Assembly: GCA_016197005.1 (NCBI GenBank)
Contig: JACPWO010000002.1
Location: 8,483 to 72,482, forward strand
Direction: 5' to 3'
DNA length: 64,000 nt
From: Candidatus Anderseniibacteriota bacterium
GTDB taxonomy: Bacteria; Patescibacteriota; Andersenbacteria; UBA10190
Positions 10,511-28,762 of this stretch are shown here, piece after piece. The first letter of the stretch is position 1. Each line of letters begins with the position of its first letter. Position numbers and translations under genes: made by a program. Below the pieces are notes generated by a model. The model ran no database searches. It saw nothing but the letters and a program-made list of their open reading frames with translations, and was not told where the DNA came from.

Positions 10511-10560
10511 CTTTTCATAAAGGGAATTTTGGTTCGAACTTTGTCCGTCCCTGAGAGCAA
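10511..10560 (+). repeat. Conserved 50-nt intergenic motif, copy 1. It contains the near-palindrome GGTTCGAAC.
   Basis: 41/50 ungapped identity with 28711-28762; the first 29 positions match at 27/29. Confidence 0.6.
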
Positions 10561-10733
10561 TCAATAAAATAAATCTGCCGCTGTGGGCGTAAGTCAGGAA
10601 TGTGAGATCGAAAAAAGTACTTGACCCCCTTATTCTCAAAGTAAAACTGCTGCACCTAGGCTGTTCTAAAGCGGCGGTTGCCAACACTTACTGCGCCGTC
10701 TATGCTGATCTGTTACTTTAAGCAAATACCCCC

Positions 10734-11705
10734 ATGACCAAAAAACTCATTATTAGCCTTGTTGTTCTGGTAGCTATTCTTGTTGCGGGCATAGGTGGGT
10801 GGCTATACGTTACTCGCAGTCCCGAATATTCACTTGTTCTGGCAGCACGGGCAGTCAAAAATCACGACTACCAAGGATTTAAACAATATGTAGACGTAGG
10901 TCAAATAGTAAGCGATCTGGTGAATGATGCGGTTGCAGAAATTCAGAAACAGGTTAACGAAGACACCGAGGGCGATCCTTGGGCGCAACTCGGTGCTAAT
11001 CTGGGCAGTGCCTTTATTGGCGCCTATACTCCGCAACTCAAGGAGCAATTCACCGATCAGATTCGGAAAGGAGTAGAGGAAGGAAATTTTGGTCGAGAAG
11101 GCACCGATGCCAGCAAGATTAGTTTTTTTGATTTTTGGACAAAGACAACTGTTGAGAAGGAAGGCAAAGTAGCCAAGATAACTACCCCAACCTTCAAACT
11201 ACAAAATGACCAACCGTTCAGTTTCAATATGCGTCAATCCAACGGTCGTTGGCAGGTGTTTTCTATTGATTTTGACGTATCCGATCTAGCGTCTAATGAT
11301 GCTCCGGCAGCAGCAGATACGACTCAACGTGTAGCCTTTGGCACAAGGACAGATATTGGTGAAGGGTGGTTTTTAACCGCAACACAACCAGAGGCCTATA
11401 CTCCCACTAACCAGTTCAGCCAGCCGCCGGAAGGCAAAAAATATGTTGCCGTCGAAATTACCTACGAAAACACGTCTACAACCAAAGACAGCTTTTCAAC
11501 TTCACGGCTGACGCTCAAAGACACCGAGGATCACGCATATACCTCTACTTTCTTTGATTCGAAAGAGCCAAGCCTATCATCGGGCGATCTTGAGCCCAGC
11601 GGAACGATAAAAGGATATGTCACCTACTCAATGCCCATCGAGCTCGATCCAAAGCAACTCGTATATTCAAGTTCTCACGCTACGGTCATTTTTGAGCAGC
11701 AGTAA
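10734..11705 (+). CDS. Membrane-anchored DUF4352-like protein.
   Basis: N-terminal TM helix. The C-terminal segment KKYVAVEITYENTST...GTIKGYVTYSMP fits the DUF4352 beta-sandwich pattern. Confidence 0.45.
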   Translation: MTKKLIISLVVLVAILVAGIGGWLYVTRSPEYSLVLAARAVKNHDYQGFKQYVDVGQIVSDLVNDAVAEIQKQVNEDTEGDPWAQLGANLGSAFIGAYTPQLKEQFTDQIRKGVEEGNFGREGTDASKISFFDFWTKTTVEKEGKVAKITTPTFKLQNDQPFSFNMRQSNGRWQVFSIDFDVSDLASNDAPAAADTTQRVAFGTRTDIGEGWFLTATQPEAYTPTNQFSQPPEGKKYVAVEITYENTSTTKDSFSTSRLTLKDTEDHAYTSTFFDSKEPSLSSGDLEPSGTIKGYVTYSMPIELDPKQLVYSSSHATVIFEQQ

Positions 11706-11896
11706 ATAGGGCCGGTGTTGATAATACAGGCTGTAATAATTGTCGCATTTGTTTCAGCATAACCTCTGGTTGCGGATTTATCTCCTCCCAGTTCATGCTT
11801 AACCAATGTTCAAAAAACGTCTTTGATGGGGAGTATCTGAATTTGATCGTAGTGGTTGTTATTGACGTTGTAGTATCAGTCGTTTACATTAATTAG

Positions 11897-12187
11897 GTGA
11901 ACGAACTTAAAAAAATTGGTGACCTACCTCAAGCGCAGCAGAAAATTCTATTTACTGTTCTGCGGATTGGTAAGCCTGCGTTTCTAACATCTGAAGTTCA
12001 TAAAAAAGTTAGTGATGAAATGGCTGGACGCTCTGTGGGCGCCGTGTTGGGGTCGCTGTACCGAAATGGTTATCTAGATAAGGTGCAGGGAGGACGAGAT
12101 AAGCGCTGGGTGTTATCAAAACAAGCAGAAGCGGCACGTGATGATATTAAGCTACAGATTTCTAATGTTAAGATTTACTGGTCCTGA
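11897..12187 (+). CDS. Small protein that looks like a winged-helix DNA-binding protein; first gene of the helicase operon.
   Basis: 96 aa with an apparent GTG start. The LPQAQQKILFTVLRIG...LYRNGYLDKV...KRWVLS layout resembles a wHTH. An 11-nt gap separates it from the helicase gene. Confidence 0.35.
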   Translation: MNELKKIGDLPQAQQKILFTVLRIGKPAFLTSEVHKKVSDEMAGRSVGAVLGSLYRNGYLDKVQGGRDKRWVLSKQAEAARDDIKLQISNVKIYWS

Positions 12188-12198
12188 TATGTACAAAT

Positions 12199-15100
12199 AT
12201 GTCGGAGAAGGAAAATAAGGCCAAAGAATCAAACTCAACAACCCCTTTCATAAAAGAGGTTGGTAAATACTTTATGGAATTTCTGGAGACAGACTTTCAT
12301 AAAAGAAGGCTGCCTCGTAGGAGTATTAAACTACATAACGATAAGGGATTACTTACTGGTCTCAATCTCAGTAAGTATCCAAGTTTTTATAAAGTTGCAT
12401 ATAAGCTTGTTAACAATGCCTTCACTGACGCCGAGTTAACAATCCAAAAGGGCGTATACAAGGCAGACATACCGGAGTCGCTGCTTGATCTCATCAAGAA
12501 GCAAATAAATAAAGTTACCAATACCGAAGTTACCGCTCTCATTAAGGAGCTTGATGATTCAATCCAACAATCGTCAGTCAAATATAAAGACGACTATTTG
12601 CAGGCATTTAATTCAGTCATGGAGAATGCTGGCTCGGTATTTGAAAAACACATCATCCTCAATTTAGTAAAGAGTATAGAAAAGCCACTTGAAAATAATA
12701 AACTCGCCGATGAGAATGCCATTTTCCAGATAGAGGATGAGCTGACGAACATCTTTACAAAGAAGGTTGAAGATGCCGTAGCCGAATCTCTCAAGATTCT
12801 CTTAAGCGGCGATAAACCAAATACAAAGAAACTTTTAAAGGATGTGCTGGATATAGAGGACATCCGTGCCAGTTTGGCCAAGTTCTTTGAAATGTTTAAG
12901 GTGTCGGATCTTTTCAATGATCTACATGAGCTTTACCAGAATTTTAAAATAGAAGATAAGCAGGAATTTTATTTCTACTTTTACGATATTAGTTACCAAA
13001 AAACTAAGTATCCCATCTTCTACATCCCATTCTCTATTGAAAGACAAAGCGATACGTTTCTAATTACCTTCGATTCGCAAATTTATATCAATAAGAAAGC
13101 ATTGGCATACATCGTTCAGGAATATAACCTTGAGCGAGGCAAAAAGGGAGCACTGCAAACAATAGCCGATAGAATTATTTACCTCGCCGATCATGAGGAT
13201 GACTTGCCGTTGGTGTTACAAGACACACTGACAGAGATTTCAAACTTCTTTGACTTAGACACAAAACCTCAAGTGGCAAAACCAGACATACAATTGAGCA
13301 AGAGCCTGTATGTTACGGCGAGCACCAATGCATATATTGCCCTTTTCGATAAGTCAGACGAGGCACTATTAAATGATTATGAGGACATTCTTAATGCCGC
13401 CGCCGACAGTGTTTTAATGAAAGGCTTTCAGGTTTTGATAAATGATTTTATACACGAAAATCCTGAGTCTGTGGCAAAGCCCATCAGGGATGATTGGGAT
13501 AGTAAGGGAGTTGATGAGCGATTGGTATATAAAAGTCCCATCCCTCTCAACAGCGAGCAACAACAGATACTTTCTGCTATTCATAATGACAGGTGCAAAT
13601 ATGTGCTCGTTGAAGGTCCTCCGGGAACGGGGAAAAGCCACACAATCACTGCAATTGTTTTTGACACGATTCTGGAGAACAAATCGGTTCTCGTGCTATC
13701 GGATAAGAAGGAAGCGCTTGATGTAGTTGAGAAAAATATTGTGAACACTCTGAATAAGGTTCGCGTTGACGAGAAATTTCAGAATCCCATTTTGCGGTTA
13801 GGAAAAACTGGTAATACCTACAGTCAACTTCTTACTCAGTCATCTATTGAAGCTATTACACAGCAGTTCAGAGCCGTCAGAAGTAAATATCCTAATCTCA
13901 ATGAGCAGATAGATGTTGCGATAGAAGCATTGAGGAATGGTGTGAAGGGTCAGACTGATGCGTATCATCATATCTCGCTTGCCGATGTTAATGAACTGTC
14001 TTCATTGAAGAAGCACTTCGATGAAGCAGGTTTTTGTATCGACGTTGATGAAGCTATAAGCAACCCCGATTCTGTAGAGGAGCTTACAAAAATACGCTCT
14101 ATCTTCTTGAAGCTTAAAAATAGGATAAAAGAAAACAGAGACGTATCGTTTAACTTTGATTACACCAAAGAGCTGGGTGATGAGAATTCCAAGAACCTTG
14201 AAGAGATTATTTCTGCGTTGGAAGATATAGCGCGACTGGCAGAGGAAAGCCCGCGCCTCTTTAGTGAAAGTAAATTATCGTCTCTTTACGATCACGTTCA
14301 GAAGAACAAAGTAAAAGTAGAGAAATTGCTTGGTTATCTTGCAAGTGTGTCTGAGCTCACGAATTTATTCACTAAAAAGAAGCAGTATTTAGACTTACTT
14401 CACGTCGACAAGAATGAGCTTGATAGTTTAGCCACTATTAAAACAGTAGCGCAGCACGCTTTGTGGCTAGAAGGCATCGTCGAAAAGGTGAAATATTTTG
14501 CGAAAGATTCTCTTAGTCGTTTGAGTTCTTTTGATAAGTCGCATAGTGATGACGTTGTTGCTCTGAAGAATTATATTGACTCAGCAAAAAAGTTGCGGAA
14601 CGGATTGCTTGGCTACTTGGGGAAGAAAAGCAAGGTCGAGCAATTGAATCAGAGCTTCCGCAAGAATTTCCCTCTTTCTAAATTCGATGACCCGCATAAA
14701 CATCTAAAAGAATTAGAGGAAATTCTAGGTATCTATGAATACGTACAAGAACTTTGCGACGATAAATATCATCCGCAGGATATTGATCTGATACACTTAG
14801 TCACTTCGATTCTAAAGGATGGTGAACTGTATTTTACATCCGATCAGCTAACTGATATTCGCAATTCGTTTGATGTTACAAACAAAGTTGATGTAATCGC
14901 TCAAGAGATTTCTAGTTCTAAGTTTTCTGTTATGACGCTTCACGACCTGAATGATATTGCGGTCATTTCTGAAATTGGAGCGCTCTATGAAGAGTTGAGC
15001 GACCTTATGACTAAGGAAAAAGAGCTAATTGAATCGAATGTTGATCTAAAGAAGATCAAGAACATCAATATGCTTTTTCAAAAAGACAATCTTAAAGAAA

Positions 15101-16977
15101 TGATTGGAGAGATCAGTGTCTGCAAAGAATACGTAGATACACTCATTGAGGTTAATGATGATGTCGTTTATTTAAAGGAATCTTCTGACAATCACAAAAA
15201 TAGTTTTGCAAAGGCGGGCATCGACAATAGCTCTTTCTCTTCGTTATACGAAAACAAATTAACTGAGATATCGGATCTTGAATTTGAAAAGCTCGTCAGA
15301 TTTATCACTCTGCATCAAGAGCTGACAGAAAAATTTGATGATATTAAGGATCTCAGCTACGGAGAGCGAATGAAGCAAGTCGAGAATATTGTAACGATGC
15401 AAATGACATATCTGATGGATGAGAGATTCGTTGACTTCACCAATGACTTTAAAGCTGACGCAAAAGCATTAAAGCAGGTAATCAAGGAAAAGAAGAAGTT
15501 TCCTAAAGATCAATTCTCAAAACTCAAGAATGCATTCCCGTGTATTTTAGCCGGTATCCGTGACTATGCAGAATATATTCCCTTGGAGCCAGAGATATTT
15601 GACCTTGTCATCATCGATGAGGCATCTCAGGTAAGTATTGCGCAAGCATTCCCAGCTCTATTGAGAGCAAAGAAGGTTGTTGTGCTTGGGGATAGCCTGC
15701 AATTTAGTAACGTGAAGTCTGCTTTGGCGCGAGGCGACATTAACAAGCAGTATTTGGGTAGTCTGCGGGAAGTTTTCTTAAAAACAGTTGCTACCGAGGA
15801 AGAGACAGACAAGGTAGCCCGCCTTGAAAAATTCAATATCAAAGTTTCAATTCTCGATTTCTTCGGCTTCATTAATAATTACCAGACTCGTTTAGTTAAG
15901 CATTTCCGTGGATACCGGGAGCTTATTTCGTATTCAAATAAGTTCTTTTACAAAAACAGCCTACAGGTTATGAAAGTTCGAGGTTTGCCGATCAGTTCGG
16001 TCATTAAATTCTCTCAAGTAGACCATGACGGTAAGGAAGAAATGACTAAAAACACAAACGTGCCTGAGATAGAGTTCATTATCTCCGAGCTTAAAGCTTT
16101 AAAGGATCAAGACAAAAAATGCACCGTCGGTATCATTACCCCTCATACAAATCAGCAACGTCTACTTTATGAGAAGATTAGTGATCTGCCTGAATCTGAT
16201 TATTTCTTCGATGCGTTGAAGCTTAAGGTGATGACCTTCGACACATGTCAGGGTGAAGAAATGGATATTATTTATTATTCCATGGTGGCTACCGAAACGG
16301 AAGATAAATTAAACTATGTGTTCATTAGTGATCTCAATAATATCGATCTAGACGATGACGAAGGAAAAATTAAGGCACAACGTCTTAACGTCGGTTTAAG
16401 CCGAGCGAAGGAATGTATGCACTTTGTACTTAGCAAGCCAATTGATCAGTACGCGGGTACTGCAAAAGAATTTCTGCAGCACTACTCAAATGCTCTGCTT
16501 GAGGCTCAAAAAGAACCTGATAGTACTAGCGTAGATAAGAATTCCGAGATGGAGCCGCTGGTTCTGGAATGGATCAAACAGACGAAGTTTTGGGATGAGA
16601 ACAAAAATAATGCTGAAATATTGCCTCAGTTTGAACTTGGTAAATATCTCAAGCAGTTGGATCAGAGCTATAATCATCCTAACTATCGAGTGGATTTCCT
16701 TCTCGTATATCGCGACGAAGAAGGAAGTGAGCATAAAATCATTATTGAATATGATGGCTTCCTAGAACATTTTGGTGATGTGATGCATGTAGTCAATGAG
16801 TCAAATTACGAAGAATACTATTCATCAGAGGATGTATATCGACAGCACGTTCTAGAAGGTTATGGTTACCGATTCATTAGGATCAATAAGTTTAATCTTG
16901 GCGAGAACCCCATCGCCACGCTTGATTCTCGAATTCAGGAAATAGTAAAAAAAAACTTTACAATCACGAAATCGTAA
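12199..16977 (+). CDS. Giant 1592-aa SF1B (Upf1/DNA2-like) helicase with a C-terminal Vsr/DUF559-like PD-(D/E)xK nuclease domain. The architecture resembles the DUF4011-helicase-REase family.
   Basis: Walker A VLVEGPPGTGKSHT. Motif Ia VLVLSDKKEALD. Motif II LVIIDEASQV plus GDSLQF. Motif V TFDTCQGEEMDII. Motif VI LNVGLSRAKE. C-terminal YRVDFLLVY...IIIEYDGFLEHF...GYRFIRINKF matches the DUF559/Vsr-like fold. Confidence 0.85.
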   Translation: MSEKENKAKESNSTTPFIKEVGKYFMEFLETDFHKRRLPRRSIKLHNDKGLLTGLNLSKYPSFYKVAYKLVNNAFTDAELTIQKGVYKADIPESLLDLIKKQINKVTNTEVTALIKELDDSIQQSSVKYKDDYLQAFNSVMENAGSVFEKHIILNLVKSIEKPLENNKLADENAIFQIEDELTNIFTKKVEDAVAESLKILLSGDKPNTKKLLKDVLDIEDIRASLAKFFEMFKVSDLFNDLHELYQNFKIEDKQEFYFYFYDISYQKTKYPIFYIPFSIERQSDTFLITFDSQIYINKKALAYIVQEYNLERGKKGALQTIADRIIYLADHEDDLPLVLQDTLTEISNFFDLDTKPQVAKPDIQLSKSLYVTASTNAYIALFDKSDEALLNDYEDILNAAADSVLMKGFQVLINDFIHENPESVAKPIRDDWDSKGVDERLVYKSPIPLNSEQQQILSAIHNDRCKYVLVEGPPGTGKSHTITAIVFDTILENKSVLVLSDKKEALDVVEKNIVNTLNKVRVDEKFQNPILRLGKTGNTYSQLLTQSSIEAITQQFRAVRSKYPNLNEQIDVAIEALRNGVKGQTDAYHHISLADVNELSSLKKHFDEAGFCIDVDEAISNPDSVEELTKIRSIFLKLKNRIKENRDVSFNFDYTKELGDENSKNLEEIISALEDIARLAEESPRLFSESKLSSLYDHVQKNKVKVEKLLGYLASVSELTNLFTKKKQYLDLLHVDKNELDSLATIKTVAQHALWLEGIVEKVKYFAKDSLSRLSSFDKSHSDDVVALKNYIDSAKKLRNGLLGYLGKKSKVEQLNQSFRKNFPLSKFDDPHKHLKELEEILGIYEYVQELCDDKYHPQDIDLIHLVTSILKDGELYFTSDQLTDIRNSFDVTNKVDVIAQEISSSKFSVMTLHDLNDIAVISEIGALYEELSDLMTKEKELIESNVDLKKIKNINMLFQKDNLKEMIGEISVCKEYVDTLIEVNDDVVYLKESSDNHKNSFAKAGIDNSSFSSLYENKLTEISDLEFEKLVRFITLHQELTEKFDDIKDLSYGERMKQVENIVTMQMTYLMDERFVDFTNDFKADAKALKQVIKEKKKFPKDQFSKLKNAFPCILAGIRDYAEYIPLEPEIFDLVIIDEASQVSIAQAFPALLRAKKVVVLGDSLQFSNVKSALARGDINKQYLGSLREVFLKTVATEEETDKVARLEKFNIKVSILDFFGFINNYQTRLVKHFRGYRELISYSNKFFYKNSLQVMKVRGLPISSVIKFSQVDHDGKEEMTKNTNVPEIEFIISELKALKDQDKKCTVGIITPHTNQQRLLYEKISDLPESDYFFDALKLKVMTFDTCQGEEMDIIYYSMVATETEDKLNYVFISDLNNIDLDDDEGKIKAQRLNVGLSRAKECMHFVLSKPIDQYAGTAKEFLQHYSNALLEAQKEPDSTSVDKNSEMEPLVLEWIKQTKFWDENKNNAEILPQFELGKYLKQLDQSYNHPNYRVDFLLVYRDEEGSEHKIIIEYDGFLEHFGDVMHVVNESNYEEYYSSEDVYRQHVLEGYGYRFIRINKFNLGENPIATLDSRIQEIVKKNFTITKS

Positions 16978-17045
16978 GTGACGTTCAAGATTTAATTCGT
17001 GATCTTCGTAGTGGTAATGCAAAAGTATGCCCCAAATGTGGTGAA

Positions 17046-17681
17046 GTGAAGCCGCTATCTGATTTTCAGGATAGATCATTGGCTACAGGGGTTGGTAGGT
17101 TTTGTCGTGAGTGCAAAGTAGGATTGAGCGCTCATTACTACATTTCACCAAGCACTGAGAGACAGCAGAGGAATATTTATAGTCTCTCAAAGGGCGATGT
17201 GAATAAGCTGCATAGTTTTTCTGATACCCCGGAAAAATATGCGAGTGGAGGCAGCAAGGCACGAGAGAAAGTTCAATACCTAGAGAGTATTAAACATAAG
17301 TTTGATGGGTTACAGGTTGCCAAATACATAGCGGCTCGTAAAAAGTATGACGAAGCACTTGTGGCAAAAGCAGAGACCGAACTGAATCAGGATGTAGATT
17401 ATAGCGCCATCTTAAATGAGGCATTTAATAATCGCAGATCAGTCAAGATTCGCTATAAAGGATCATGGCGCACTGTTGATCCCTACTCTCTTAACAATAC
17501 TTATGTGGTTGCTTACTGCCATCTCGCTCGTGATATCCGAACATTTAGAGTAGACAGAATACAAGGAGCGGATTTGTCCGATTCATTTAGCTTAAATAGC
17601 AACTTGCAGGAAATGGCACAAAGTAGATTGGCTGAAGCTCCTAGCTTTCGAGGCTATAAGCGTCGGCGGCGCAGGTATTAA
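17046..17681 (+). CDS. Zinc-ribbon plus WYL-domain protein, a putative ligand-sensing regulator. The frame is open from 16926 with no canonical start, so it may be fused to the helicase.
   Basis: WYL-like segment RRSVKIRYKGSWRTVDPYSLNNTYVVAYCHLARDIRTFRVDRI. Zn ribbon CPKCG-x17-CRECK. The ORF-track GTG start at 17046 falls between the two Cys pairs. Confidence 0.55.
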   Translation: MKPLSDFQDRSLATGVGRFCRECKVGLSAHYYISPSTERQQRNIYSLSKGDVNKLHSFSDTPEKYASGGSKAREKVQYLESIKHKFDGLQVAKYIAARKKYDEALVAKAETELNQDVDYSAILNEAFNNRRSVKIRYKGSWRTVDPYSLNNTYVVAYCHLARDIRTFRVDRIQGADLSDSFSLNSNLQEMAQSRLAEAPSFRGYKRRRRRY

Positions 17682-17696
17682 ACTTAAGATTAATAT

Positions 17697-19866: not shown

Positions 19867-21705
19867 ATGTTGGCCAAGATATTTGCACAATTAGTAACGA
19901 CAGCTGTTGTGGTAGTTGCAGCGGTGATGCTGTTCTCTGGAAACTCCAGCGCCGCCCAAAATACTAGTCAGCTTGAAATATTTTTCACGGACAAAGATAA
20001 CAATCTGAAAACAGCGTCGCTGGCTGACGAAAAATGGGGCATTGACACTGTCGATAATCCTGGTGGGGCGGTCGGCACGTCACTGTCGGTCGTGTTGGAT
20101 AACCAGGGAGCTAGCCATTTAAGCTACCGAGATAGTCGACCGGGTAAAGCAGAATATCAACAATCTGATTTACGCTATGCTACCAACAGTAGTGGTACCT
20201 GGCAGGATGAGGAGGCTTTTGGAACAGATGGTCGTATTGGTGCCAATGCAATAGTAGTAGATGCGCAAGGACATGTTCACATTATTTTCAACCATTACCC
20301 GGCAAATGATCCCAGTAATGGTGAGCTGCTTTATGCCAATAATTCAACCGGCGACTGGCAAGTAGAGGAAGTTAGCCAATCAGCTTTAATTAATAGTGGC
20401 AATATTGGCATTGATGCTAGTGGTCTACTACATACTGTCTACCAACACAATCAACAGCTTGTTTACTCTAAACGCACAGGTTCTAATCAGTGGACGAGCG
20501 AAGTGATAACATCTTTTGGCAGCCGACTACCTCATGTTGCTTTTGCCCTGGATAGTGATGGGCAACCGCAGGTTGCCATTGTTCTGCAAGATGAGAATAA
20601 ACTGAAATTCGCTAAGCGCGGTGGCGATAGCTGGAGCATTGAAGATGTGACAAGTTGGACTAACGGTGGCGACCAACATGTATACTTAGGTCTAGATACT
20701 AACGATAAGGCACACCTTGCATTAACGACTGGTCCAGGTAATGGACGTGGACCTCATTATATTACGAAAAGTGGTAACCAGTGGTTAATTGAGTCAGTCG
20801 GCGCTTTCATAACAGAGCCTTCATATTTGTCTTTGGGCGTTACCACTGACGATACGGTGCATCTAACTTTTGCGACTGCGTATGATAATTCACCACAATT
20901 AGACTCTGATCGACCACTGCATTATGCCAGACGAGTTGATAACCAGTGGATAGTTGATCAAGTGCATGAAGAAGGTACCGTCTTGCGAGGACGATTTCCC
21001 GTCATGGTAACTTCAGGTGCATCCCCTGTTTTACCCGACTGTTTTGCGCGAACTCTTGGGCTGTATTGCGCTAACGACCCGTCACCAGTAACTAATCCCA
21101 ACGTTGATAACACGAGCAGTAGCAATGAAGTTAGTAGTGGTGATAATGGTGGTGGGGGCGACTCCGGCGGCGGTGGGGGCGGTGGAGGTGGTAATGGCGG
21201 TGAATCTACACCGGCGCCCGTAGCCAAGCCGCGAGTATTAGGTATACAAACTGTTAAAGTCTCAGCAGCTGATAAAGCAGCGCCGGACTTTATTCCAAAT
21301 CAGCAGGTTCCCGTCATTGTCGCTCGACTTTTTCAAGAAGTTTTTGGGCGACTAATTACTCCTGCAGAAAGTACATACTGGAAGGGTCGAGCACGTAGTG
21401 ATAAAGCTACCGAAACTAAACTTAGAGGTGCTATGGCGTGGCACCAGGCTAACGGTTCGACAGGTGCTATGGCATCAGTAGTAACTGCTGTAAACGCTCC
21501 AGCTTCTACAACGAATATTATTTCGAACAAGCAAGTACCAGCGGTTGTTGAACAAGTATTCGCCAAGGTTTTCCATTTACGCGTTAGTGCAATTCTGAGT
21601 ACATACTGGAAGGGTCGAGCACGCACAGACAAACGCACTAAGAGTCTACTTGAAGGTGCTATGCGATGGTATCAAGGTAAAGGATTGACTTCGCCTACTA
21701 GTTGA
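19867..21705 (+). CDS. Secreted repeat protein with a propeller-like N-terminal domain, a poly-Gly linker and two C-terminal DUF4214-like repeats.
   Basis: Signal peptide. A recurring hhhDxxGxxHhhh motif about every 50 aa. Linker GGGGDSGGGGGGGGGNGG. Duplicated ...STYWKGRAR.DK.T...GAM.W.Q..G modules. Confidence 0.6.
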   Translation: MLAKIFAQLVTTAVVVVAAVMLFSGNSSAAQNTSQLEIFFTDKDNNLKTASLADEKWGIDTVDNPGGAVGTSLSVVLDNQGASHLSYRDSRPGKAEYQQSDLRYATNSSGTWQDEEAFGTDGRIGANAIVVDAQGHVHIIFNHYPANDPSNGELLYANNSTGDWQVEEVSQSALINSGNIGIDASGLLHTVYQHNQQLVYSKRTGSNQWTSEVITSFGSRLPHVAFALDSDGQPQVAIVLQDENKLKFAKRGGDSWSIEDVTSWTNGGDQHVYLGLDTNDKAHLALTTGPGNGRGPHYITKSGNQWLIESVGAFITEPSYLSLGVTTDDTVHLTFATAYDNSPQLDSDRPLHYARRVDNQWIVDQVHEEGTVLRGRFPVMVTSGASPVLPDCFARTLGLYCANDPSPVTNPNVDNTSSSNEVSSGDNGGGGDSGGGGGGGGGNGGESTPAPVAKPRVLGIQTVKVSAADKAAPDFIPNQQVPVIVARLFQEVFGRLITPAESTYWKGRARSDKATETKLRGAMAWHQANGSTGAMASVVTAVNAPASTTNIISNKQVPAVVEQVFAKVFHLRVSAILSTYWKGRARTDKRTKSLLEGAMRWYQGKGLTSPTS

Positions 21706-22428: not shown

Positions 22429-22914
22429 TTATTTCCCGACGTGACGGAAAGGCATGCCCATACGTGGCCCAAACTTTCCATGTGGTCCCTTCATGCCTAG
22501 GTTTAGATATTGAAGAGGAATATCATTATCTTCTGCCCATCGCTTTAGTTCATCCATTTTTGTTTTCATAGCATCGCGACGTTCTTCCATTGTTTTTTCT
22601 TTTAGTGATTCTATGAATGTCTTAAGTTCAGCATGCTTAGCGGTTATCAGATCGGCTTGTGCCTGAGTGATTTTCCCATCCGTCACCGTTTGGGCAAGTC
22701 GATCTTTCATGGCTTGTTCATGCTCTGTCATTAAATCTGAGCGATGCTCATCAAAGACAGTCTGAAGGTCATCCCGGTTAAGGCTGAATCGTTCAACGAG
22801 CCGATCAATTAAGTTTGTAGTATTTGAAGCAGCGTAGGTAGGGCTGGCATGAAACACAACAAGTCCTAATACTGCAATGGCACTAGCGGCAAACAATGAT
22901 TTTTTGGCTTTCAT
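22429..22914 (-). CDS. Secreted helical protein; possibly a periplasmic stress protein of the Spy/CpxP type.
   Basis: Signal peptide (AASAIAVLGLVVFHASPTYA). A charged, coiled-coil-like body. Confidence 0.4.
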   Translation of the reverse strand: MKAKKSLFAASAIAVLGLVVFHASPTYAASNTTNLIDRLVERFSLNRDDLQTVFDEHRSDLMTEHEQAMKDRLAQTVTDGKITQAQADLITAKHAELKTFIESLKEKTMEERRDAMKTKMDELKRWAEDNDIPLQYLNLGMKGPHGKFGPRMGMPFRHVGK

Positions 22915-22997
22915 ATATTGATAGTTAATGATTATGAATTAGTGTCCTTACTATGCCAAAAACGTAATGAAGCCAGGGTGAATTTTGTATGAAGGTT

Positions 22998-24047
22998 TTA
23001 AGCTTTTATTGGGAGAGTTAAAGTAACGGTAGTGCCTTCTCCTGGCTTGCTACTGATGTTTACCGAGCCGCCATAGTTGTGGATAACTGCTTGAACAATA
23101 GATAATCCCAAGCCGCTACCACCCTTCTCGCGTGATCGACTTTGGTCAACCCTGTAGAAACGATCAAAGAGTTTTGGAATTTCTTCTTCAGCGATGCCGA
23201 TACCGGTATCGCTGACTATAATATCGACGCTAGTTTTATTGGGTCTTAGGCTAACGACAACATTTCCATTGGGTTTATTGTGATCGATACCATTCTTAAT
23301 TAGGTTGCTGATCGCCTGCAGGATATGTTCTTTGTTGGCAGTAACCATTACTGGCAACTCGTGTGTCACAGGAGAAGAGATGACCTTAATGTTGTGTTTT
23401 GTTGCGTACCCCTGGAGACGCTTGACGGTTGCCGTGACTATCTCGTTGAGGTCAATCGCTTCTTTAGATGTGGATAGCTGATTCTCACCATCAAGACGTG
23501 AGATCAAGAGTAAGTCTTTAACAATCCTACCCATGCGCTGCACTTCTTCAAGGTGGCTCTGTGCATTTTCTTTTTCTTCAGTGCTTGCCTTGGTATTATC
23601 AAGCTCATTTTCTAAGTCAGTTTGGAGGATGGCTAACGGGGTGCGCAGTTCGTGAGAAGCATCGCTTAAGAAACGGCGCTGTTGTTCGTATGCTTGTTTG
23701 ATGGGGCGAAGTGTAAGACCAGCGAGAATATAGCTTAAACCGACGGCGCCAATAAAGAGTGTGCCATTCACTAATATCATGGAGGTGATCAGTTCTTGCC
23801 GGGCTTGTGCTCGAGCTTCTTGCCCTATTTCTAAAATTTGTGGTGGTGGTGGCAAAGGTCGTCCTCGAAAAAACATGCGCGCCTCAAGCCGGTTTGAGAA
23901 AACCGAATGTGTGGTAATAGCAGAAATAACTAAGACAGCCAATAGAAGAACGGCATAAATGCCAGTCAGCCGCAGACGCGTCAGCTGAAACTTGTCGTTA
24001 CGCAACCCGGTAACCTTTTCCGCGAATTGTTTCAATTCGTTTGGCAT
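22998..24047 (-). CDS. Sensor histidine kinase.
   Basis: Two TM helices. H-box SHELRTPL. N-box NLIKNGIDH. G-boxes DTGIGI and GGSGLGLSIV. Confidence 0.85.
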   Translation of the reverse strand: MPNELKQFAEKVTGLRNDKFQLTRLRLTGIYAVLLLAVLVISAITTHSVFSNRLEARMFFRGRPLPPPPQILEIGQEARAQARQELITSMILVNGTLFIGAVGLSYILAGLTLRPIKQAYEQQRRFLSDASHELRTPLAILQTDLENELDNTKASTEEKENAQSHLEEVQRMGRIVKDLLLISRLDGENQLSTSKEAIDLNEIVTATVKRLQGYATKHNIKVISSPVTHELPVMVTANKEHILQAISNLIKNGIDHNKPNGNVVVSLRPNKTSVDIIVSDTGIGIAEEEIPKLFDRFYRVDQSRSREKGGSGLGLSIVQAVIHNYGGSVNISSKPGEGTTVTLTLPIKA

Positions 24048-24660
24048 AGTCTTTTGGTAGTTTTTTACGCAGGTTCTTTAAATGGACGTCGACCACGTTA
24101 CTTAATGAGTCATAGAAATTATCCCATACGTGGTCGAGTATATCTTCGCGGGTGATAACCTTGTCGCGGTTACGCAAGAGGTATTCTAATAAAGAATACT
24201 CGCGGGTCGTCAAAGAAATCTCTGTATCGTTAATTGTTAAACGTTGAGCCTGTGTATCAAGCTTTAAATCATCGAGAGTGAGCGTGTCCGAGACCATTCC
24301 GTTGGGGCGGCGCAGTAGGCTGCGAATACGAGCAGTTAATTCCTCGAAAGAAAAAGGCTTAATTAAATAATCATCAGCCCCTTCATCTAATCCCGTAACT
24401 TTATCTTCTACTGCATCCTTAGCGGTAAGGAAGAGTATCGGCGTTGTGATACCGTCTTTGCGTAAATTGCGGCAGACGGTCAGGCCGTCTCGTCGAGGCA
24501 TCATGATATCGAGCAGGATCAGATCATACGGGTTCTTGCGAGCCAAATTTTCCCCAGCTTGTCCCTCAAAGGTGAAATCAACCGCGTAACCGCGGGTCTT
24601 AAGACCCTTGACAATTCCTTTATTTAGTTTAGGTTCGTCTTCAACGACTAAGATACGCAT
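23998..24660 (-). CDS. OmpR-family response regulator.
   Basis: MRILVVEDE. Phospho-acceptor in DLILLDIMMP. C-terminal winged helix ending RGKGYRV. Confidence 0.85.
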   Translation of the reverse strand: MRILVVEDEPKLNKGIVKGLKTRGYAVDFTFEGQAGENLARKNPYDLILLDIMMPRRDGLTVCRNLRKDGITTPILFLTAKDAVEDKVTGLDEGADDYLIKPFSFEELTARIRSLLRRPNGMVSDTLTLDDLKLDTQAQRLTINDTEISLTTREYSLLEYLLRNRDKVITREDILDHVWDNFYDSLSNVVDVHLKNLRKKLPKDYAKRIETIRGKGYRVA

Positions 24661-24711
24661 AGTTTTAGTAGTACCAATATGATGATGAAGAACCAATGAA
24701 GATACCAGAAT

Positions 24712-24742
24712 GTAGAGGCCGCTGATAGTAAGCGGCCTCTAC
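24712..24742 (-). terminator. Strong hairpin downstream of the 24747-25217 gene.
   Basis: 12-bp perfect stem GTAGAGGCCGCT / AGCGGCCTCTAC with a 7-nt loop. Confidence 0.45.
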
Positions 24743-24746
24743 AGAG

Positions 24747-25217
24747 TTATTGTTGATTCGGTAAAGCTTGGTTCCCACTTTGCCCGCCCGGTCGATTCCC
24801 GAAGGGAATATTCATACCTTCTGGAACGATTTGAATTGAGGTAGCCGTCGTGCTGCCATCAGGGTTTTGTTGTCCCGTGACAATCACCTGCGTGCCGGAG
24901 GTGACATCGCTGGCTGAACCACTGGTCATCTTCTGGTAGGCGGTGCTGCTATTTACCAGAACAATATGAGAGCTGTTATCAGGTGTTTGCACGGTGATTC
25001 TGCCATCCGTTACCGACTGAACTGCACCGGTAACTCTACCTCCACCAGACATCTGTCCATTAGCGCCTGGCATGCCGCGGAAGTTACCCATCATGCCGGG
25101 ACGTGGTCCTGGTTGTGCCCCGCTCAGTTTCGTGCCGCCGAAATATCCAGCTGCACCACCTACGATGAGACAGGCGATCGCAGTAGTCGCAATCGTTGCT
25201 TTAGTTGTCATATTCAA
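24747..25217 (-). CDS. Secreted Gly-rich protein of unknown function.
   Basis: Signal peptide followed by Gly/Pro-rich and Thr/Ser-rich segments. Confidence 0.4.
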   Translation of the reverse strand: MNMTTKATIATTAIACLIVGGAAGYFGGTKLSGAQPGPRPGMMGNFRGMPGANGQMSGGGRVTGAVQSVTDGRITVQTPDNSSHIVLVNSSTAYQKMTSGSASDVTSGTQVIVTGQQNPDGSTTATSIQIVPEGMNIPFGNRPGGQSGNQALPNQQ

Positions 25218-25237
25218 ACACCTCCTTCCGCAATGAG

Positions 25238-26470
25238 TTACTCATAATGCAATGCCACTATTGGCTGCAGTTGTGCTGCCCGACGAGCAGGGTAGTAGCC
25301 AAAAATAATGCCGATGGCAGTAGAAACAGTGAAGGCCAGGAGTGGGCCATAGAGCGAATAGGAAGCAGTGAGATTGAGTAATCGGCTGGCTAAGAAGGAG
25401 ATGCCAAAACCAAGCAGGATGCCAAAAATACCGCCGACGATGGTGAGTACCGCCGACTCGAGCAGAAATTGCAGCAAAATATCTTTTTTCTTTGCCCCAA
25501 TTGCTTTGCGAATACCAATCTCTCGTGTGCGCTCGGTAATGGTGACAAGCATGATATTCATAATGCCAATGCCACCGACGAGCAGTGATATGGCGGCAAT
25601 GCCAGAGAGTAGGTTAGTGAAGGTGCTGGTAGTTTCCGTGACAGCGTTTAAGAGATCGGCTTGGGAGCGAATAGTAAAGTCGGCTTCAGTCGGATTAGTA
25701 AGATGGTGCCGGCGTAATAAGAACATACCTACCTCATCCATCGTCTGATTCATCGTTTCTGCGCTCACCGCAGCTACTGAAATGCTGCTCACGTACCCAG
25801 TGCCAGCGAGTAATTTCTGAGCCGTAGTAACTGGCACGAATATACCGTCGTCGGAGCTGCCAAATCCCCCGCCGCCTTTAGCGACCGTGACGCCGATAAC
25901 TTTAAACGGAATGCGATTGATTTGAATAGTCTGGCCAACGGCTGTGCCGCCAGTGCCAAATAAATCTTCAACGACATTGGGTCCGAGCACGGCTACTTTT
26001 TCTATACCCACAATATTTCTATCGGAGAGAAAAGTGCCCGACGCCATCGTGATATTCGAGGTAATACGATAGTCTGGCAGTGCACCTGTCACTCGGGCAT
26101 TGGTATTGTTTCGTCCTTGAGTGGCTTGGTAATTCCGTGATACCTCGGCACTCACCGCCTCAACAGTTGTCAGTGACGCATTGTCAGCAATTGCCTGGGC
26201 ATCCTCAAGCGTCAGCGTGTTGGCTGACCCTGCTGCACCTTGCACACCTCCACCCTGGTTTGTTGCGCTCGAGGAGATCGTAAGAAGGTTTGAGCCGATT
26301 GAAGATATGCGCTCGGTGACTTGTGCCTGGGTTCCTTGGCCAAGTGCAATTAATCCCACCACCGCGGCAATACCAATGACTATACCGAGAATAGCTAAAC
26401 CTGTGCGTAGTTTATTACCAAGTAACGCATCAAGGGCAGTACTCATTGTTTCTTTAAAATCCATGGGCAT
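25238..26470 (-). CDS. MacB-type ABC transporter permease (FtsX domain with a periplasmic domain).
   Basis: N-terminal TM helix, a large periplasmic domain, and a C-terminal FtsX-like four-TM bundle (ILLQFLLESAVLTIVGGIFGILLGF). Confidence 0.8.
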   Translation of the reverse strand: MPMDFKETMSTALDALLGNKLRTGLAILGIVIGIAAVVGLIALGQGTQAQVTERISSIGSNLLTISSSATNQGGGVQGAAGSANTLTLEDAQAIADNASLTTVEAVSAEVSRNYQATQGRNNTNARVTGALPDYRITSNITMASGTFLSDRNIVGIEKVAVLGPNVVEDLFGTGGTAVGQTIQINRIPFKVIGVTVAKGGGGFGSSDDGIFVPVTTAQKLLAGTGYVSSISVAAVSAETMNQTMDEVGMFLLRRHHLTNPTEADFTIRSQADLLNAVTETTSTFTNLLSGIAAISLLVGGIGIMNIMLVTITERTREIGIRKAIGAKKKDILLQFLLESAVLTIVGGIFGILLGFGISFLASRLLNLTASYSLYGPLLAFTVSTAIGIIFGYYPARRAAQLQPIVALHYE

Positions 26471-27161
26471 GAGGCGATGTAGGAATAGGGTGCTCGTGCG
26501 GTTGCTGATGTTTGTCTTCACTGACGAGGCCATCGCGTAGGGTAATGACCCGTTTGGCGTGGGCGGCGATATCATGTTCGTGCGTCACCATGATGATGGT
26601 GTGGCCTTGGGCGTTCAGCTTTTGAAAAAAGTGCATAATTTCGTCTCCGGTTTTGGTATCTAAATTACCGGTAGGCTCATCCGCTAGAAGAATACTAGGA
26701 TTGGTTACCAGTGCCCTGGCGATGGCCACCCGCTGTTTTTGCCCACCAGAAATTTCATTCGGAAGCTTGTTAAGATGATCAGCGAGACCAACACGACTCA
26801 GTACTTTCTTCGCTTTTTCTTCTCGTGTCGTATCGTTCGCGTAGGCCAGTGGCAGGGCGACATTTTTGAGTAAGCTCATGCGAGCGAGTAAGTTAAACGC
26901 CTGAAAGACAAAACCAATTTTGCGGTTCCGAATGTCAGACAAGCGATCATCATCTAAGTCCTGGACCGCTTCACTATCAAGTTCATATGTGCCCGTAGTT
27001 GGAATATCCAGTGCGCCTATGATATGCATAAGTGTTGATTTCCCAGAGCCTGAAGGGCCCATGATGGCGACGAACTCACCTTTTTGAATAGAAAGACTTA
27101 TACCCTTTAGAGCACGAGTGCCATCAGGAAAGGTTTTGGTGATGTTCTTAATTTCGATCAT
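26454..27161 (-). CDS. ABC transporter ATP-binding protein (MacB/LolD type).
   Basis: Walker [10 protein letters not shown]. Signature [15 protein letters not shown]. Walker [12 protein letters not shown]. Confidence 0.85.
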
Positions 27162-27167
27162 CGTTCT

Positions 27168-28574
27168 TTACCTAAAGATTGCGCCACCACCTGGTCCACC
27201 ACCGTTGCCTTGCTGTGTTTGTGCGCTAAAGGCACCACTCGTTGTTCCTGTTCCTTGGCTGGTAATTATTTGATCACCTTCCTGTAAGCCATCAATAATT
27301 TCTGTATGCGTATCATTGTTTGCACCGATTGTTACGGTGATGGTGGTAGCAGCACCGTCTCGCATAATCTGAACAGAATCTTGGTCATTCTGGGTGCTCA
27401 CTGCCGCACTTGGTACCAAGAGCACATCATTTTTCTGTTCAGTAATAATGCTGGCGCTCGCAGTCATGCCTGGACGAATACTTTCATCGATCATATCGAG
27501 CCCTATCTCTACGTTGTACGTCGTAACGCCGGAAGTAGTGGTACCTAATCGATCAATGCCCACCACGCTTCCGGTAAGAGTCTTATCTGGTAAGGCATCA
27601 AACGTTAGCGTTGCCGGTTGGCCGATCTCTACACTCGCAATATCTATTTCATTAATAGCGACCTGTGCCCGTAGACTCATTAGATCAATGATGGAAAAGA
27701 GAGACGTTGATGATCCGCTGCTCCCAGTGTCGCTACTGCTTGCTGCATTACTACTGCCGACAGTACTGCCTTCCACCAACGACAGATTCATAATCGTACC
27801 GCCAACAGGCGCAGTTAGTGTTTGGCTTGTGAGTGCCTGATAGCTTAAGCGACTGGCAGTTAGGCTCGCCGCAGACGCATTGTATGACTGCTGCGCACTC
27901 TTAGTTTTGAGCGCTGCCGACTCGGTATCTCTCTTTGATTGTTGGAGCGCCACATCAGCTGTTTTCAAATTTTCTTGGCCTTGTAATGTAGCTGTCTGCA
28001 GATCAATTTTGGCACTTTGTGTACCGCGTTCAGCTGAGACTGTTTTTAGCGCAGTATCAGCTGCTTCCTGAGTTATGGCTGCACCGATGACGCCTTTATC
28101 GGCATCAATCACTGGCTGGTTAACGGCAATTTTCGCTTGGTCGTAGGCCAGTTGGCTGGCGGCTAAGGTAGTCTTTTCAATGTTTTCATTTTTCTGAGTA
28201 TCTTGCAGTCGTTGTTGCGCATCAGTTACTGCTCCTTGTGCAGATAAAAGCGAGGCATATGCTTTCGCAATATCTTCAGCTGTTGCCAGCGACTTAATTT
28301 TGAGTAGTGCTTGGTCAGCCCTAACTACGTCACCGTCTTTGACGAGCAGCTGCTCAACACGTCCCTGACCACTCACGCTGACATCAGCCTGAATCTTTGC
28401 CAGCACAGAACCCGTACCAGTAACGGATTGGACCAGCGTACCTTTTGTAACTGTTTCCGTTGTTGGGGTAGTAGAGGTTTCAGTTGTATTTGAGCTGTAC
28501 CACCACCAGCCGCCAGCGACGACTGCGATTACGACTGCACTAATAAGCCACGGGTTACGGTATGGGATTTTCAT
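27168..28574 (-). CDS. HlyD/MacA-family periplasmic adaptor subunit.
   Basis: N-terminal TM anchor. A long coiled-coil hairpin region. C-terminal beta-barrel/lipoyl segments. Confidence 0.75.
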   Translation of the reverse strand: MKIPYRNPWLISAVVIAVVAGGWWWYSSNTTETSTTPTTETVTKGTLVQSVTGTGSVLAKIQADVSVSGQGRVEQLLVKDGDVVRADQALLKIKSLATAEDIAKAYASLLSAQGAVTDAQQRLQDTQKNENIEKTTLAASQLAYDQAKIAVNQPVIDADKGVIGAAITQEAADTALKTVSAERGTQSAKIDLQTATLQGQENLKTADVALQQSKRDTESAALKTKSAQQSYNASAASLTASRLSYQALTSQTLTAPVGGTIMNLSLVEGSTVGSSNAASSSDTGSSGSSTSLFSIIDLMSLRAQVAINEIDIASVEIGQPATLTFDALPDKTLTGSVVGIDRLGTTTSGVTTYNVEIGLDMIDESIRPGMTASASIITEQKNDVLLVPSAAVSTQNDQDSVQIMRDGAATTITVTIGANNDTHTEIIDGLQEGDQIITSQGTGTTSGAFSAQTQQGNGGGPGGGAIFR

Positions 28575-28710
28575 ATGTCATCACTGTAGAAAACCCTTTA
28601 TGAAGGGAAGATGAAGGACGGGCCGACGCTTGTTTGCTAATTGTGGGTAGTTACTCCGGGGCTACTAGCTACCAGTCTAAGCTGAGAGGCTTTTGGGCTT
28701 GGATATTGGT

Positions 28711-28762
28711 CTTGTCATAAACGGAATTTTGGTTCGAACCTTCTCTATTCCTCGGAGCAAAA
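28711..28762 (+). repeat. Conserved intergenic motif, copy 2, with the perfect palindrome GGTTCGAACC.
   Basis: 41/50 identity with 10511-10560 in the same orientation. Confidence 0.6.

Follow-up and report, generated by a model that had tools for sequence, protein, structure and literature searches.

This locus raises the question of why a conserved sequence of about 50 nt occurs twice, 18.2 kb apart, between the genes of a Candidatus Anderseniibacteriota bacterium. The window is the whole stretch of DNA that was analysed (64,000 nucleotides of contig JACPWO010000002.1). An earlier note on its sequence had described the repeat and proposed three roles for it: shared operator of a dimeric regulator, small RNA or leader sequence, or island boundary. 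The repeat itself is confirmed: 10508-10560 and 28708-28760 agree at 43 of 53 ungapped positions on the same strand, the 41/50 identity first given is reproduced for 10511-10560 against 28711-28760, and the start-to-start spacing is 18,200 nt. The 24-nt core CATAAASGGAATTTTGGTTCGAAC has two occurrences in the window with up to three mismatches allowed, and none in 100 shuffles. The sequence GGTTCGAACC is, as claimed, a perfect 10-bp palindrome in copy 2 (28731-28740), and copy 1 has GGTTCGAACT at that position. The neighbors are also those described, with copy 1 between the copper cluster and a DUF4352 gene and copy 2 between HlyD/ABC/MacB efflux genes and a methyltransferase gene. Five copies were found in all, and 17 nt are invariant across four of them. 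Copy 1 extends past its noted length to 81 nt (10481-10561). This unit is 97.5% identical to metagenome contig L001:7131-7211 and has both boundaries in common with it in unrelated contexts; neither flank is related, and the homology breaks at 10561.

The answer lies on the minus strand, where one frame, and only one, is open through all five copies. It encodes the tail (W/L)LxGTEKVRTKIPFMKRPVYSPD. Codons with a single difference are synonymous in 32 cases and non-synonymous in 37 when read in this frame, against 7 and 62 for the antisense triplets. In L001:5421-5717(-) the motif forms the C-terminus of a 98-aa ORF, the N-terminal part of which matches the C-terminal domain of rec2, an intact large serine recombinase (LSR; tblastn, 2e-14). 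A profile search of 1.84 billion proteins returned LSRs and C-terminal LSR fragments only. Homologous tails are contiguous with intact LSRs in rec2 of locus L005 and in P0016; rec2 has the Pfam domains Resolvase and Recombinase, and rec1 of the same locus also has a weak match to Zn_ribbon_recom. Judged from these sequences, the motif is the leftover of the last ~27-30 codons, on the minus strand, of LSR genes of Patescibacteria. Both copies are intergenic relative to intact genes, as first described, but both are themselves fragments of minus-strand genes. The window copies contain the LSR tail alone.

The window holds at least six such orphan tails and one tail-end relic at 10.4-33 kb, all seven on the minus strand. 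The features, with the evidence for each, are as follows.

1-10470, no strand assigned: right-hand ~10.5 kb of element E1, with unknown genes and the copper-resistance cluster.
10480-10461, minus strand: terminator-like hairpin after the copy 1 stop (sequence).
10471-10560, minus strand: copy 1 (c1), orphan native LSR tail LLSGTDKVRTKIPFMKRPVYSPDKVKHSST; stop at 10468-10470; tail HMM E=7e-14.
10531-10539, no strand assigned: copy 1 box GGTTCGAAC, corresponding to minus-strand codons V-R-T; proposed zinc-ribbon domain (ZD) motif of an attP-type half-site.
10555-10562, no strand assigned: copy 1 junction, where LSR-tail homology stops; coding strand ...ttg·CTC..., the dot marking the junction (junction table).
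10569-10601, minus strand: relic of a second LSR tail, of which the final 10 codons (IPDLRPQRQI) remain; separated from copy 1 by 8 nt.
11729-11833, minus strand: orphan tail r2, immediately following the DUF4352 gene; CGA changed to an in-frame TGA stop.
28680-28760, minus strand: copy 2 (c2), orphan native tail LLRGIEKVRTKIPFMTRPISKPKSLSA; stop at 28677-28679; tail HMM E=2e-9.
28731-28740, no strand assigned: GGTTCGAACC box in copy 2 (box alignment).
29503-29559, minus strand: weak orphan tail t5 (LLATVEKVRTCSF...), immediately following the methyltransferase gene; tail HMM E=0.13.
32382-32459, minus strand: orphan tail t4 (LLRIVNNVRTIFQRQKGYTYIPDLGR), P0011 type; tail HMM E=1e-8.
32887-32922, minus strand: weak orphan tail t6 (WLPLLNVFRPVA), resembling the P0017 and P0018 tails; tail HMM E=0.41, weak alone.

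Tail r2 has 85% nucleotide identity to the last 35 codons of intact rec2 (L005:11047-11151); the homology ends at the W·L codon, and L006:1136-1255 is the same orphan. Tail t5, weak alone, is further indicated by nhmmer (29530-29559), a ttg·CTC junction, and GTAAGAAC at +19. In the relic beside copy 1 the stop TAG is mutated to TAT, and the relic and its junction (TTTATTGAT·TGCTC) match L008:1320-1365, the end of the P0011 ORF. On its host side, copy 1 is flanked by the terminal part of a further LSR gene, as is the case in L008, an arrangement for which the model below does not account.

The point at which the tails begin is fixed. Full-length P0014, P0016, P0020, and P0025 run to ...VAAIKSTW followed by L, and past this point the ORF of full-length relatives is completed either by a native tail or by antisense sequence of a tRNA 3′ end. 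The antisense-tRNA continuation occurs in 13 of the 19 LSR loci from genomes, where the ORF crosses into an opposite-strand tRNA gene and TGG corresponds to CCA; VRT-type tails are found on LSRs with no adjoining tRNA. The tRNAs at LSR loci are of the Asn, Asp, Gln, Leu, Pro, Trp, and Val types, plus an intron-containing tRNA. The tRNA 3′ end falls within the Trp/Leu codon directly preceding the antisense-tRNA-encoded tail at 10 of the 13 tRNA-overlapping loci, and in the more distant L018, L019, and L032 it falls in a Leu or Asn codon, a register off by a few codons. About 16 orphan tails have one common start codon (Trp/Leu): c1, c2, r2, t4, t5, and t6 in the window, two in L001/L002, one each in L006, L008, L017, and L020, and four in L023. 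The L020 orphan shares its strand with an LSR that is fused to tRNA-Asn, at a distance of 11.5 kb. As at a serine-integrase att junction, homology ends at one position in independent insertions, and the shared start codon points to a recombination junction inside the LSR ORF. We infer a crossover at the Trp/Leu codon; this position rests on homology breakpoints only, because neither an excised circle nor an empty attB was observed, and the sequences fetched contained no circular junction.

A second regularity lies within the tail. The sequence TT(C/A)GAAC is found at +20 to +26 after the junction in 21/21 aligned class-R tails, with exact GAAC at +23 to +26 in 20 of them (the exception, t6, reads GACC). 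Within the box the synonymous sites are frozen (T21 in 19/21, A24 in 21/21), and the wobble site that follows is variable. The residues Arg and Thr are conserved at the amino acid level too, so a protein-level constraint may explain some of the conservation of the box. The GTTCGAAC box is probably the binding motif of the recombinase ZD, and it appears to mimic the T-loop box of the tRNA target. It starts at +19 in 21/21 class-R tails and at +14 in the tRNA antisense, placing it 5 bp farther from the junction than the T-loop box of tRNA targets. In Listeria A118/LI integrase the ZD motif likewise shifts by 5 bp between attP (positions 16-24) and attB (11-19) (PMC3783163). At the level of sequence, then, the outer ZD motif is 5 bp farther out in the attP-type than in the attB-type half-site, although the box would lie ~3 bp farther out than in the LI integrase sites if crossover is exactly at the codon boundary.

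The earlier note had stated that the segment contains no integrase. This is true inside the window, where tblastn with 17 LSR queries found no recombinase body, but an intact recombinase lies 6.8-8.5 kb upstream of window position 1. Contig L034 extends the window leftwards (L034:9112-18438 equals window 1-9327 at 100%) and has, in order, an intron-containing tRNA, an intact LSR fused to the tRNA, an excisionase-like gene, a primase/helicase gene, and the copper cluster. The left ~8.5 kb of E1, with the LSR, is thus outside the window. This LSR (L034:590-2338, Pfam Resolvase and Recombinase) has 582 aa, ends ...KSTW·LPGSDSNRQPTGYM before its stop, and abuts the group-I-intron tRNA; LSR and tRNA are on one side of the copper cluster and copy 1 is on the other. 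The GC content of E1 (window 1-10470) is 48-51%, and that of the rest is 39-45%. Copy 1 can be paired with an LSR of the same element, the one on L034; no partner LSR was found for copy 2. We infer that copy 1 is the far-end junction closing the ~19-kb E1, i.e., E1's own tail. However, the closest relatives of the E1 LSR C-terminal domain (P0009/P0010) have a different native tail, 37% identical to copy 1, so copy 1 could be an older orphan into which the cargo end of E1 was placed.

We consider it likely that the repeat consists of orphaned LSR gene tails left at the far end of integrated elements, with attP inside the ORF and a tRNA attB. The attP would lie within the recombinase ORF at the conserved Trp-Leu codon pair ~30 codons before the stop, as a candidate ~50-bp site centred on ...AAATCGACTTGG·CTCTCAGGG..., and its partner would be a tRNA 3′ end. 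Integration at the 3′ end of the tRNA gene (attB) would fuse the ORF body to the antisense of the tRNA, hence the match of TGG to CCA. The native tail, as the P-arm half-site, would be carried to the far end of the element and stay there as an orphan beside host DNA. For E1 the predicted layout is the intron-containing tRNA, then the LSR, excisionase-like, primase/helicase, and unknown genes and the copper-resistance cluster, then copy 1 as the proposed P-arm of the distal junction. Different insertions, most of them decayed and all stacked on the downstream side of this tRNA, would have left copy 2 and four or more further tails as scars. Simple tandem accretion would predict recombinase bodies after the junctions in the window, yet none is present; additional deletions or a different insertion pathway would be needed.

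An alternative reading is that the orphan tails are live secondary landing sites, with cassette-like capture by a recombinase acting in trans and integron-like accretion. The short units of plus-strand gene(s) followed by a minus-strand tail fit this, as DUF4352 with r2 (1.27 kb), the methyltransferase gene with t5 (0.8 kb), and the four tails 0.6-1.4 kb apart in L023, as do the lack of recombinase bodies between units and the box conservation at synonymous sites even in orphans. We nevertheless think it unlikely: an orphan would combine a P-type with a B-type half-site, and without a directionality factor such hybrids are not recombined by known serine integrases (PMC3783163); several orphans are decayed (the stop in r2, and weak t5 and t6), and a circular cassette was not seen. 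Quite unlikely, too, is ordinary pseudogene debris, with recombinase genes cut by random deletion unrelated to a recombination site. Varied truncation points do occur (the 98-aa L001 ORF, the 133-aa P0011, and the 70-aa P0012), along with the in-frame stop in r2, but ~16 orphans have one breakpoint to the codon, the codon where ORF and tRNA meet in 10/13 tRNA-overlapping loci (with the other three a few codons off), and copy 1 and L001:7131-7211 have the same two unit ends in unrelated contexts.

The boundary reading of the earlier note was right as to kind, since the copies are recombinase-gene tails at integration junctions, but not as to the two ends of one 18-kb island. That copies 1 and 2 are attL and attR of a single 18.2-kb island with the helicase-WYL-Cas4 genes is very unlikely, even if they are same-strand direct repeats and the defence, two-component, and efflux genes that they enclose are mixed in composition. 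The identity of the two copies is only 81%, another orphan (11729-11833) is found within the interval and a further three are found past copy 2, neither copy adjoins a recombinase body, and the segments vary independently, as in L006; copy 1 is also explained as the end of the element to its left, the LSR/tRNA junction of which is ~19 kb away.

Least probable of all is a functional plus-strand element (a small RNA or leader, or an operator centred on the palindrome): strong nucleotide conservation, the 8-10-bp palindrome, and the position of 3/5 copies upstream of a plus-strand gene are set against conservation that the coding frame and att-site box account for, a dyad that ends at GTTCGAAC, and L001, where one copy has no downstream plus-strand gene and another is inside an ORF.

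Several specific candidates were rejected. For a structured RNA or riboswitch, no known family and no stable conserved fold was found: Rfam gave no match in the window at the gathering threshold (E-value mode was applied to fetched loci only), and seven folds had z-scores of -1.19 to +1.00 with structures that differ between copies. The operator suggestion fails in that the dyad is only 8-10 bp, the genes flanking the copies are unrelated, and the motif is not consistently upstream of genes on either strand. A displaced tRNA 3′ fragment was rejected as well, and a match to a tRNA fragment, which the earlier note had named as counting against its motif, is narrowly avoided: the box is like that of a T-loop, but the sequence as a whole does not line up with a tRNA. 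ARAGORN found no tRNA, the distance from the box GG to the CCA-equivalent end is 30 nt and not the 25 of a tRNA, and the flanks of TTCGAAC cannot form a T-stem. A MITE or REP element was rejected on the lack of terminal inverted repeats, the presence of only two close copies in the window, and a unit that is a gene fragment in a fixed frame.

The orphan-tail model has parallels in known systems. SSV-type (fusellovirus) archaeal integrases have attP within the int gene, and integration splits the gene. As here, the gene is partitioned on tRNA integration, and fragments border the elements and persist as relics. The SSV-type enzymes, however, are archaeal virus tyrosine recombinases whose gene is inactivated by the split; here antisense-tRNA codons would replace only the last ~30 codons, which probably leaves the enzyme intact. 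The usual view of serine integrases is that their targets are protein-coding genes and that attP is located outside int. The attL/attR scars and tandem arrays of tRNA-targeting islands are similar in that same-strand repeats delimit acquired segments downstream of a tRNA, with the newest element (intact integrase) beside the tRNA and older decayed units farther off; they differ in that the repeat here codes for the C-terminal tail of the recombinase itself and is not a tRNA 3′ fragment that was displaced, and the enzyme is a serine, not a tyrosine, recombinase. Integron attC/cassette arrays share short gene units in one orientation, each ending in a related site-like sequence, but the present arrays lack both an IntI tyrosine recombinase and a folded single-strand attC structure, unit sizes are heterogeneous, and capture is putative. 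The Listeria A118/LI integrase sites also have a 7-9-bp box in the outer half-site and a 5-bp displacement (Rutherford et al. 2013, PMC3783163); here, by contrast, attP would lie within the integrase ORF and the proposed attB is the acceptor/T-arm end of many tRNA genes. We found no prior description of a tRNA-targeting LSR family with attP in its own ORF in the full-text literature, coverage of which is incomplete, and novelty is provisional.

Beyond this locus, we see about an even chance of a Patescibacteria-wide LSR family with attP in its own ORF and, as attB, the universal tRNA T-loop box together with the acceptor end, in which each integration would swap the last ~30 residues for antisense-tRNA-encoded ones and deposit an orphan half-site; orphans would pile up and may stay usable as landing sites. 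If true, this would be the serine-recombinase counterpart of the SSV-type split integrase, and a natural case in which many tRNA genes are addressed by a single integrase scaffold. Within the window, the orphan-tail model turns what looked like a regulatory or RNA motif into a map of horizontal acquisition, with the copper-resistance cluster, DUF4352, the helicase-WYL-Cas4 defence block, and the efflux/two-component block as separate mobile-element cargos behind one tRNA gene. The mobile elements of Patescibacteria are poorly described. Such a family would give a sequence signature (orphan W·L tails) to delimit islands in fragmented MAGs and a natural setting in which to test the 5-bp zinc-ribbon-shift model of attP/attB discrimination, and it would supply candidate integrases with predictable tRNA-based targets.

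The repeat is real. Positions 10508-10560 (copy 1) and 28708-28760 (copy 2) are identical at 43 of 53 positions, ungapped, on the same strand and at a spacing of exactly 18,200 nt. We reproduced the 41/50 identity that an earlier note had given over its own intervals, and the palindrome it saw in copy 2 (GGTTCGAACC) is perfect. The gene neighbourhoods match its description (copy 1 between the copper cluster and a DUF4352 gene, copy 2 between an efflux operon and a methyltransferase gene). With up to 3 mismatches allowed, a 24-nt core is present at two places in the window and in none of 100 shuffles. Scanning with the pattern AAANGGAATTTTGGTTCGAAC gave 0 matches in 185,579 reference genomes and 2 real matches in metagenome contigs (contigs L001 and L002). 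The search for additional copies, which the note had proposed, was positive, with three beyond the window, two in L001 and one in L002. L001:7131-7211 has 97.5% identity to window 10481-10561, with unrelated flanks on both sides; L002:994-1074 is more distant; and L001:5437-5517, a divergent fifth copy, was found with a profile built from the others. Two matches of a 17-mer in viral contigs lie inside phage coding sequence and are due to chance.

Six-frame translation shows one minus-strand frame open through all five copies, which reads (W/L)L-x-G-T-E-K-V-R-T-K-I-P-F-M-K-R-P-V-Y-S-P-D. Within the 24-nt core only one base varies, at the wobble position of a proline codon, and codons with a single difference are 32 synonymous and 37 non-synonymous in this frame, versus 7 and 62 when the antisense triplets are read. 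A small plus-strand ORF (MFNLIRRVNGPFHKGNFGSNFVRP) was rejected, as changes there are nearly all non-synonymous. The divergent L001 copy forms the C-terminal end of a 98-aa ORF, the remainder of which matches residues 491-581 of rec2, an intact 602-aa large serine recombinase (LSR) at L005:11041-12849. A profile search of all 1.84 billion representative proteins returned 17 matches, all LSRs or LSR C-terminal fragments; a word-index protein search with the tail profile returned four short fragments only, and LSR relatives in viral contigs are distant matches only (23-25% identity). Beyond a common ...VAAIKSTW-L..., full-length LSRs have one of two tail types: class R, W-L-x5-(V/F/Y)-R-T... (rec2, the profile-search proteins P0016, P0011, P0017, P0018, P0021 and P0023, and the window copies), and class T, W-L-P-G-S-D-S-N-R-Q-P.... 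We conclude that the motif is the orphaned tail of an LSR gene and most likely marks the junction of an integration. P0016 (L011:140-1885; also L012-L014) is called as 524 aa without the catalytic N-terminus; its open frame has 582 codons, and the gene call probably starts too late. A gene with an NYN domain begins 4 nt after its stop.

With a six-frame tail profile we found, all on the minus strand of the window, six orphan tails (tails without a recombinase body) and a single tail-end relic.

Orphan tails and relic in the window
10471-10560, minus: copy 1, strong
10569-10601, minus: tail-end relic (IPDLRPQRQI), matches a junction in locus L008
11729-11833, minus: orphan tail r2, strong; 85% nucleotide identity to the rec2 tail, homology ends at the Trp-Leu codon boundary
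28680-28760, minus: copy 2, strong
29503-29559, minus: orphan tail t5, weak
32382-32459, minus: orphan tail t4, strong
32887-32922, minus: orphan tail t6, weak

The origin of the tails was examined in 19 LSR loci fetched from reference genomes of Andersenbacteria, Paceibacteria, Saccharibacteria, Parcubacteria and others. The class T tail is what a tRNA 3' end encodes when it is read in antisense. The LSR ORF enters an oppositely oriented tRNA gene (Asn, Asp, Gln, Leu, Pro, Trp or Val) at 13 of these 19 loci, and tRNA-encoded tails include PGSDSNRQPTGYM. The tRNA 3' end lies inside the Trp (TGG = CCA) or Leu (TTG) codon directly before the antisense-tRNA tail in 10 of these 13; in L018, L019 and L032 it is in a Leu or Asn codon, with the register off by a few codons. 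Two loci without an ARAGORN tRNA, L027 and L029, have tRNA-antisense-like tails (LLRG followed by a stop, and MLRDQDSNLEPTPYT), and the tail of L015 is the same as in the intron-containing tRNA cases described below. The only three loci that lack both a tRNA call and such a tail (L017, L025 and L026) have class R tails.

Every orphan class R tail starts at the same codon of the Trp-Leu pair: copies 1 and 2, r2, t4, t5 and t6 in the window, and those in L001, L002, L006, L008, L017, L020 and, four in a row, L023. Fragments cut at other points (98, 133 and 70 aa) also occur, so ordinary decay is at work too; it cannot account for the common breakpoint. Judged from these sequences, the Trp-Leu codon pair is probably the recombination junction. 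In this model the circle (attP) junction would read ...GCGATAAAATCGACTTGG joined to CTCTCAGGGACGGACAAAGTTCGAACC, and the empty host site (attB), on the plus strand, ...GGTTCGAATCCGACCCCGGGAG joined to CAATCAATAAAATAAATCTGCC. L020 carries an orphan and, 11.5 kb away on the same strand, an LSR fused to tRNA-Asn; this layout would be expected if a circular element ordered body, junction, tail, cargo had recombined with a tRNA end.

The predicted order after integration is tRNA, LSR body, cargo, native tail and host, and a proposed element, E1, fits it. Window 1-9327 recurs at 100% identity in L034, a public-run contig that reaches 9,111 nt further left.

Order of features in and beside the proposed E1, left to right
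L034:357-629: tRNA gene split by a group I intron (Rfam RF00028, 77 bits)
L034:590-2338, opposite strand to the tRNA: intact 582-aa LSR, ending ...ATVAAIKSTW, then LPGSDSNRQPTGYM and a stop
L034:2335-2556: excisionase-like HTH protein (73 aa), then primase/helicase
then: unknown genes, the copper cluster of the window, and copy 1

E1 is about 19.0 kb (L034:634 to window 10560), and copy 1 would close it. The tRNA 3' exon, read in antisense, encodes the LSR tail, and ARAGORN finds a cloverleaf only after in-silico removal of the intron. The copper cluster (window 2001-10000; DsbD_2/cupredoxin, HMA, P-type ATPase, DsbA) has a GC content of 48-51% versus 39-45% elsewhere, consistent with recent acquisition as E1 cargo. 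The native tail differs in the nearest relative of the E1 recombinase C-terminal domain; either tails were swapped between elements, or copy 1 is older than E1. Group-I-intron tRNA genes (RF00028), missed by ARAGORN, occur in three Andersenbacteria contigs (L034:357-629, L005:~80-400 and L001:~3330-3650), and splicing in silico gives no definite isotype. LSR elements or orphan tails follow the gene in L005 and L001 as well, which makes it a recurrent hotspot. The L005/L001 sequence beside rec1, the other LSR of L005, was considered as a tmRNA 3' end and is the group I intron plus the tRNA 3' exon. L005 has two matches to the LOOT RNA (Rfam RF03000) at 4809-4935 and 15507-15631 (79 and 82 bits; gathering score 46), each situated between divergent genes of an element with an LSR and AAA_25; this suggests that this orphan RNA family belongs to Patescibacteria mobile elements.

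The earlier note had also suggested that the copies are boundary repeats bracketing one island. They are boundary repeats, but not such a pair, since the orphan tail r2 lies within the 18.2 kb. This interval holds at least two units, DUF4352 with r2, then a 96-aa gene through the efflux operon with copy 2, as supported by L006, which shares DUF4352, r2 and a Cas4-like nuclease gene with the window and has methyltransferase/ResIII in place of the helicase/WYL module. What lies between the r2 junction and the common Cas4-like PD-(D/E)XK gene (79% nucleotide identity) is defence-like and variable: besides a 96-aa gene in each, the window (11834-17696) carries a 1592-aa SF1 helicase with a WYL protein, and L006 (1256-7090) an N6_N4 methyltransferase with a ResIII helicase. 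DUF4352 orthologues elsewhere adjoin SIR2_2 (L007) and a KAP NTPase (L005). On its host side, copy 1 is flanked by the final ten codons of another LSR gene, of the P0011 type, together with the spacer TTTATTGAT; the junction of TTTATTGAT with TGCTC recurs at L008:1320-1365 beside a different orphan tail, giving two independent orphan-tail junctions. Searching the window with 17 LSR queries found no recombinase body. As none follows any window junction, simple tandem accretion does not suffice as an explanation. A cassette-like use of orphan sites is a less probable reading.

Elsewhere in the window, 51603-51899 (minus) encodes a 98-aa protein with a strong match to the SWIB/MDM2 domain (E=1.4e-32), to our knowledge uncommon in bacteria. 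A 92-nt direct repeat (21370-21461 and 21598-21689, 73% identity) lies inside a 612-aa ORF (19867-21705) with a weak BNR_4 match. Look-up of the ORF at 34-876 returned no record.

The palindrome lies in a conserved box, (G/T)TT(C/A)GAAC, that begins 19 nt after the junction in 21/21 aligned class R tails, with exact GAAC in 20 (t6 has GACC). Wobble positions in the box are near-frozen (T21 in 19/21, A24 in 21/21) and the next one, just outside, varies freely, so the box appears to be under DNA-level constraint on top of the coding constraint. The equivalent T-loop box in tRNA antisense, (A/G)(T/C)TCGAACC, begins at +14. The zinc-ribbon motif of serine integrases lies 5 bp further out in attP (16-24) than in attB (11-19) (Rutherford et al., PMC3783163). 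Because the outward shift is the same here, we read the palindrome as a putative zinc-ribbon motif of a P-type half-site that mimics the T-loop box of the target. Compared with Listeria (LI) integrase sites, the box is displaced outward by about 3 bp in absolute position.

The remaining proposal of the note, an operator, leader or small RNA, is unsupported because the adjoining genes are mutually unrelated, placement upstream of genes is inconsistent on either strand, Rfam (gathering threshold) and ARAGORN give no RNA family or tRNA in the window, and folds of each copy on either strand differ in structure and are no more stable than shuffles (z-scores -1.19 to +1.00). A candidate helix of 4 bp that seemed to covary (ACGG/CCGU, AUAG/CUGU) is out of register in the fifth copy. 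Hexamers of sigma-70, ECF and sigma-54 readings, made by eye, are inconsistent between copies, and a promoter scan gave a single weak sigma-70-like site, in copy 1 only. The motif is absent upstream of the DUF4352 orthologues in L005 and L007; for L006, the upstream sequence covered was 150 nt.

A full-text literature search of incomplete coverage returned no account of serine recombinases of this kind from Patescibacteria. SSV-type archaeal viruses have split integrase genes, which encode tyrosine recombinases; these are the nearest analogy. In function, the copies are most likely attachment scars of integrative elements, of the familiar kind that stacks at a tRNA gene. Here, however, the enzyme is a serine recombinase, and the repeat, which is not collinear with tRNA, consists of the coding tail of the enzyme itself, not of a displaced tRNA fragment. 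The attachment site apparently lies inside the ORF, and the end of the gene would be swapped upon integration.
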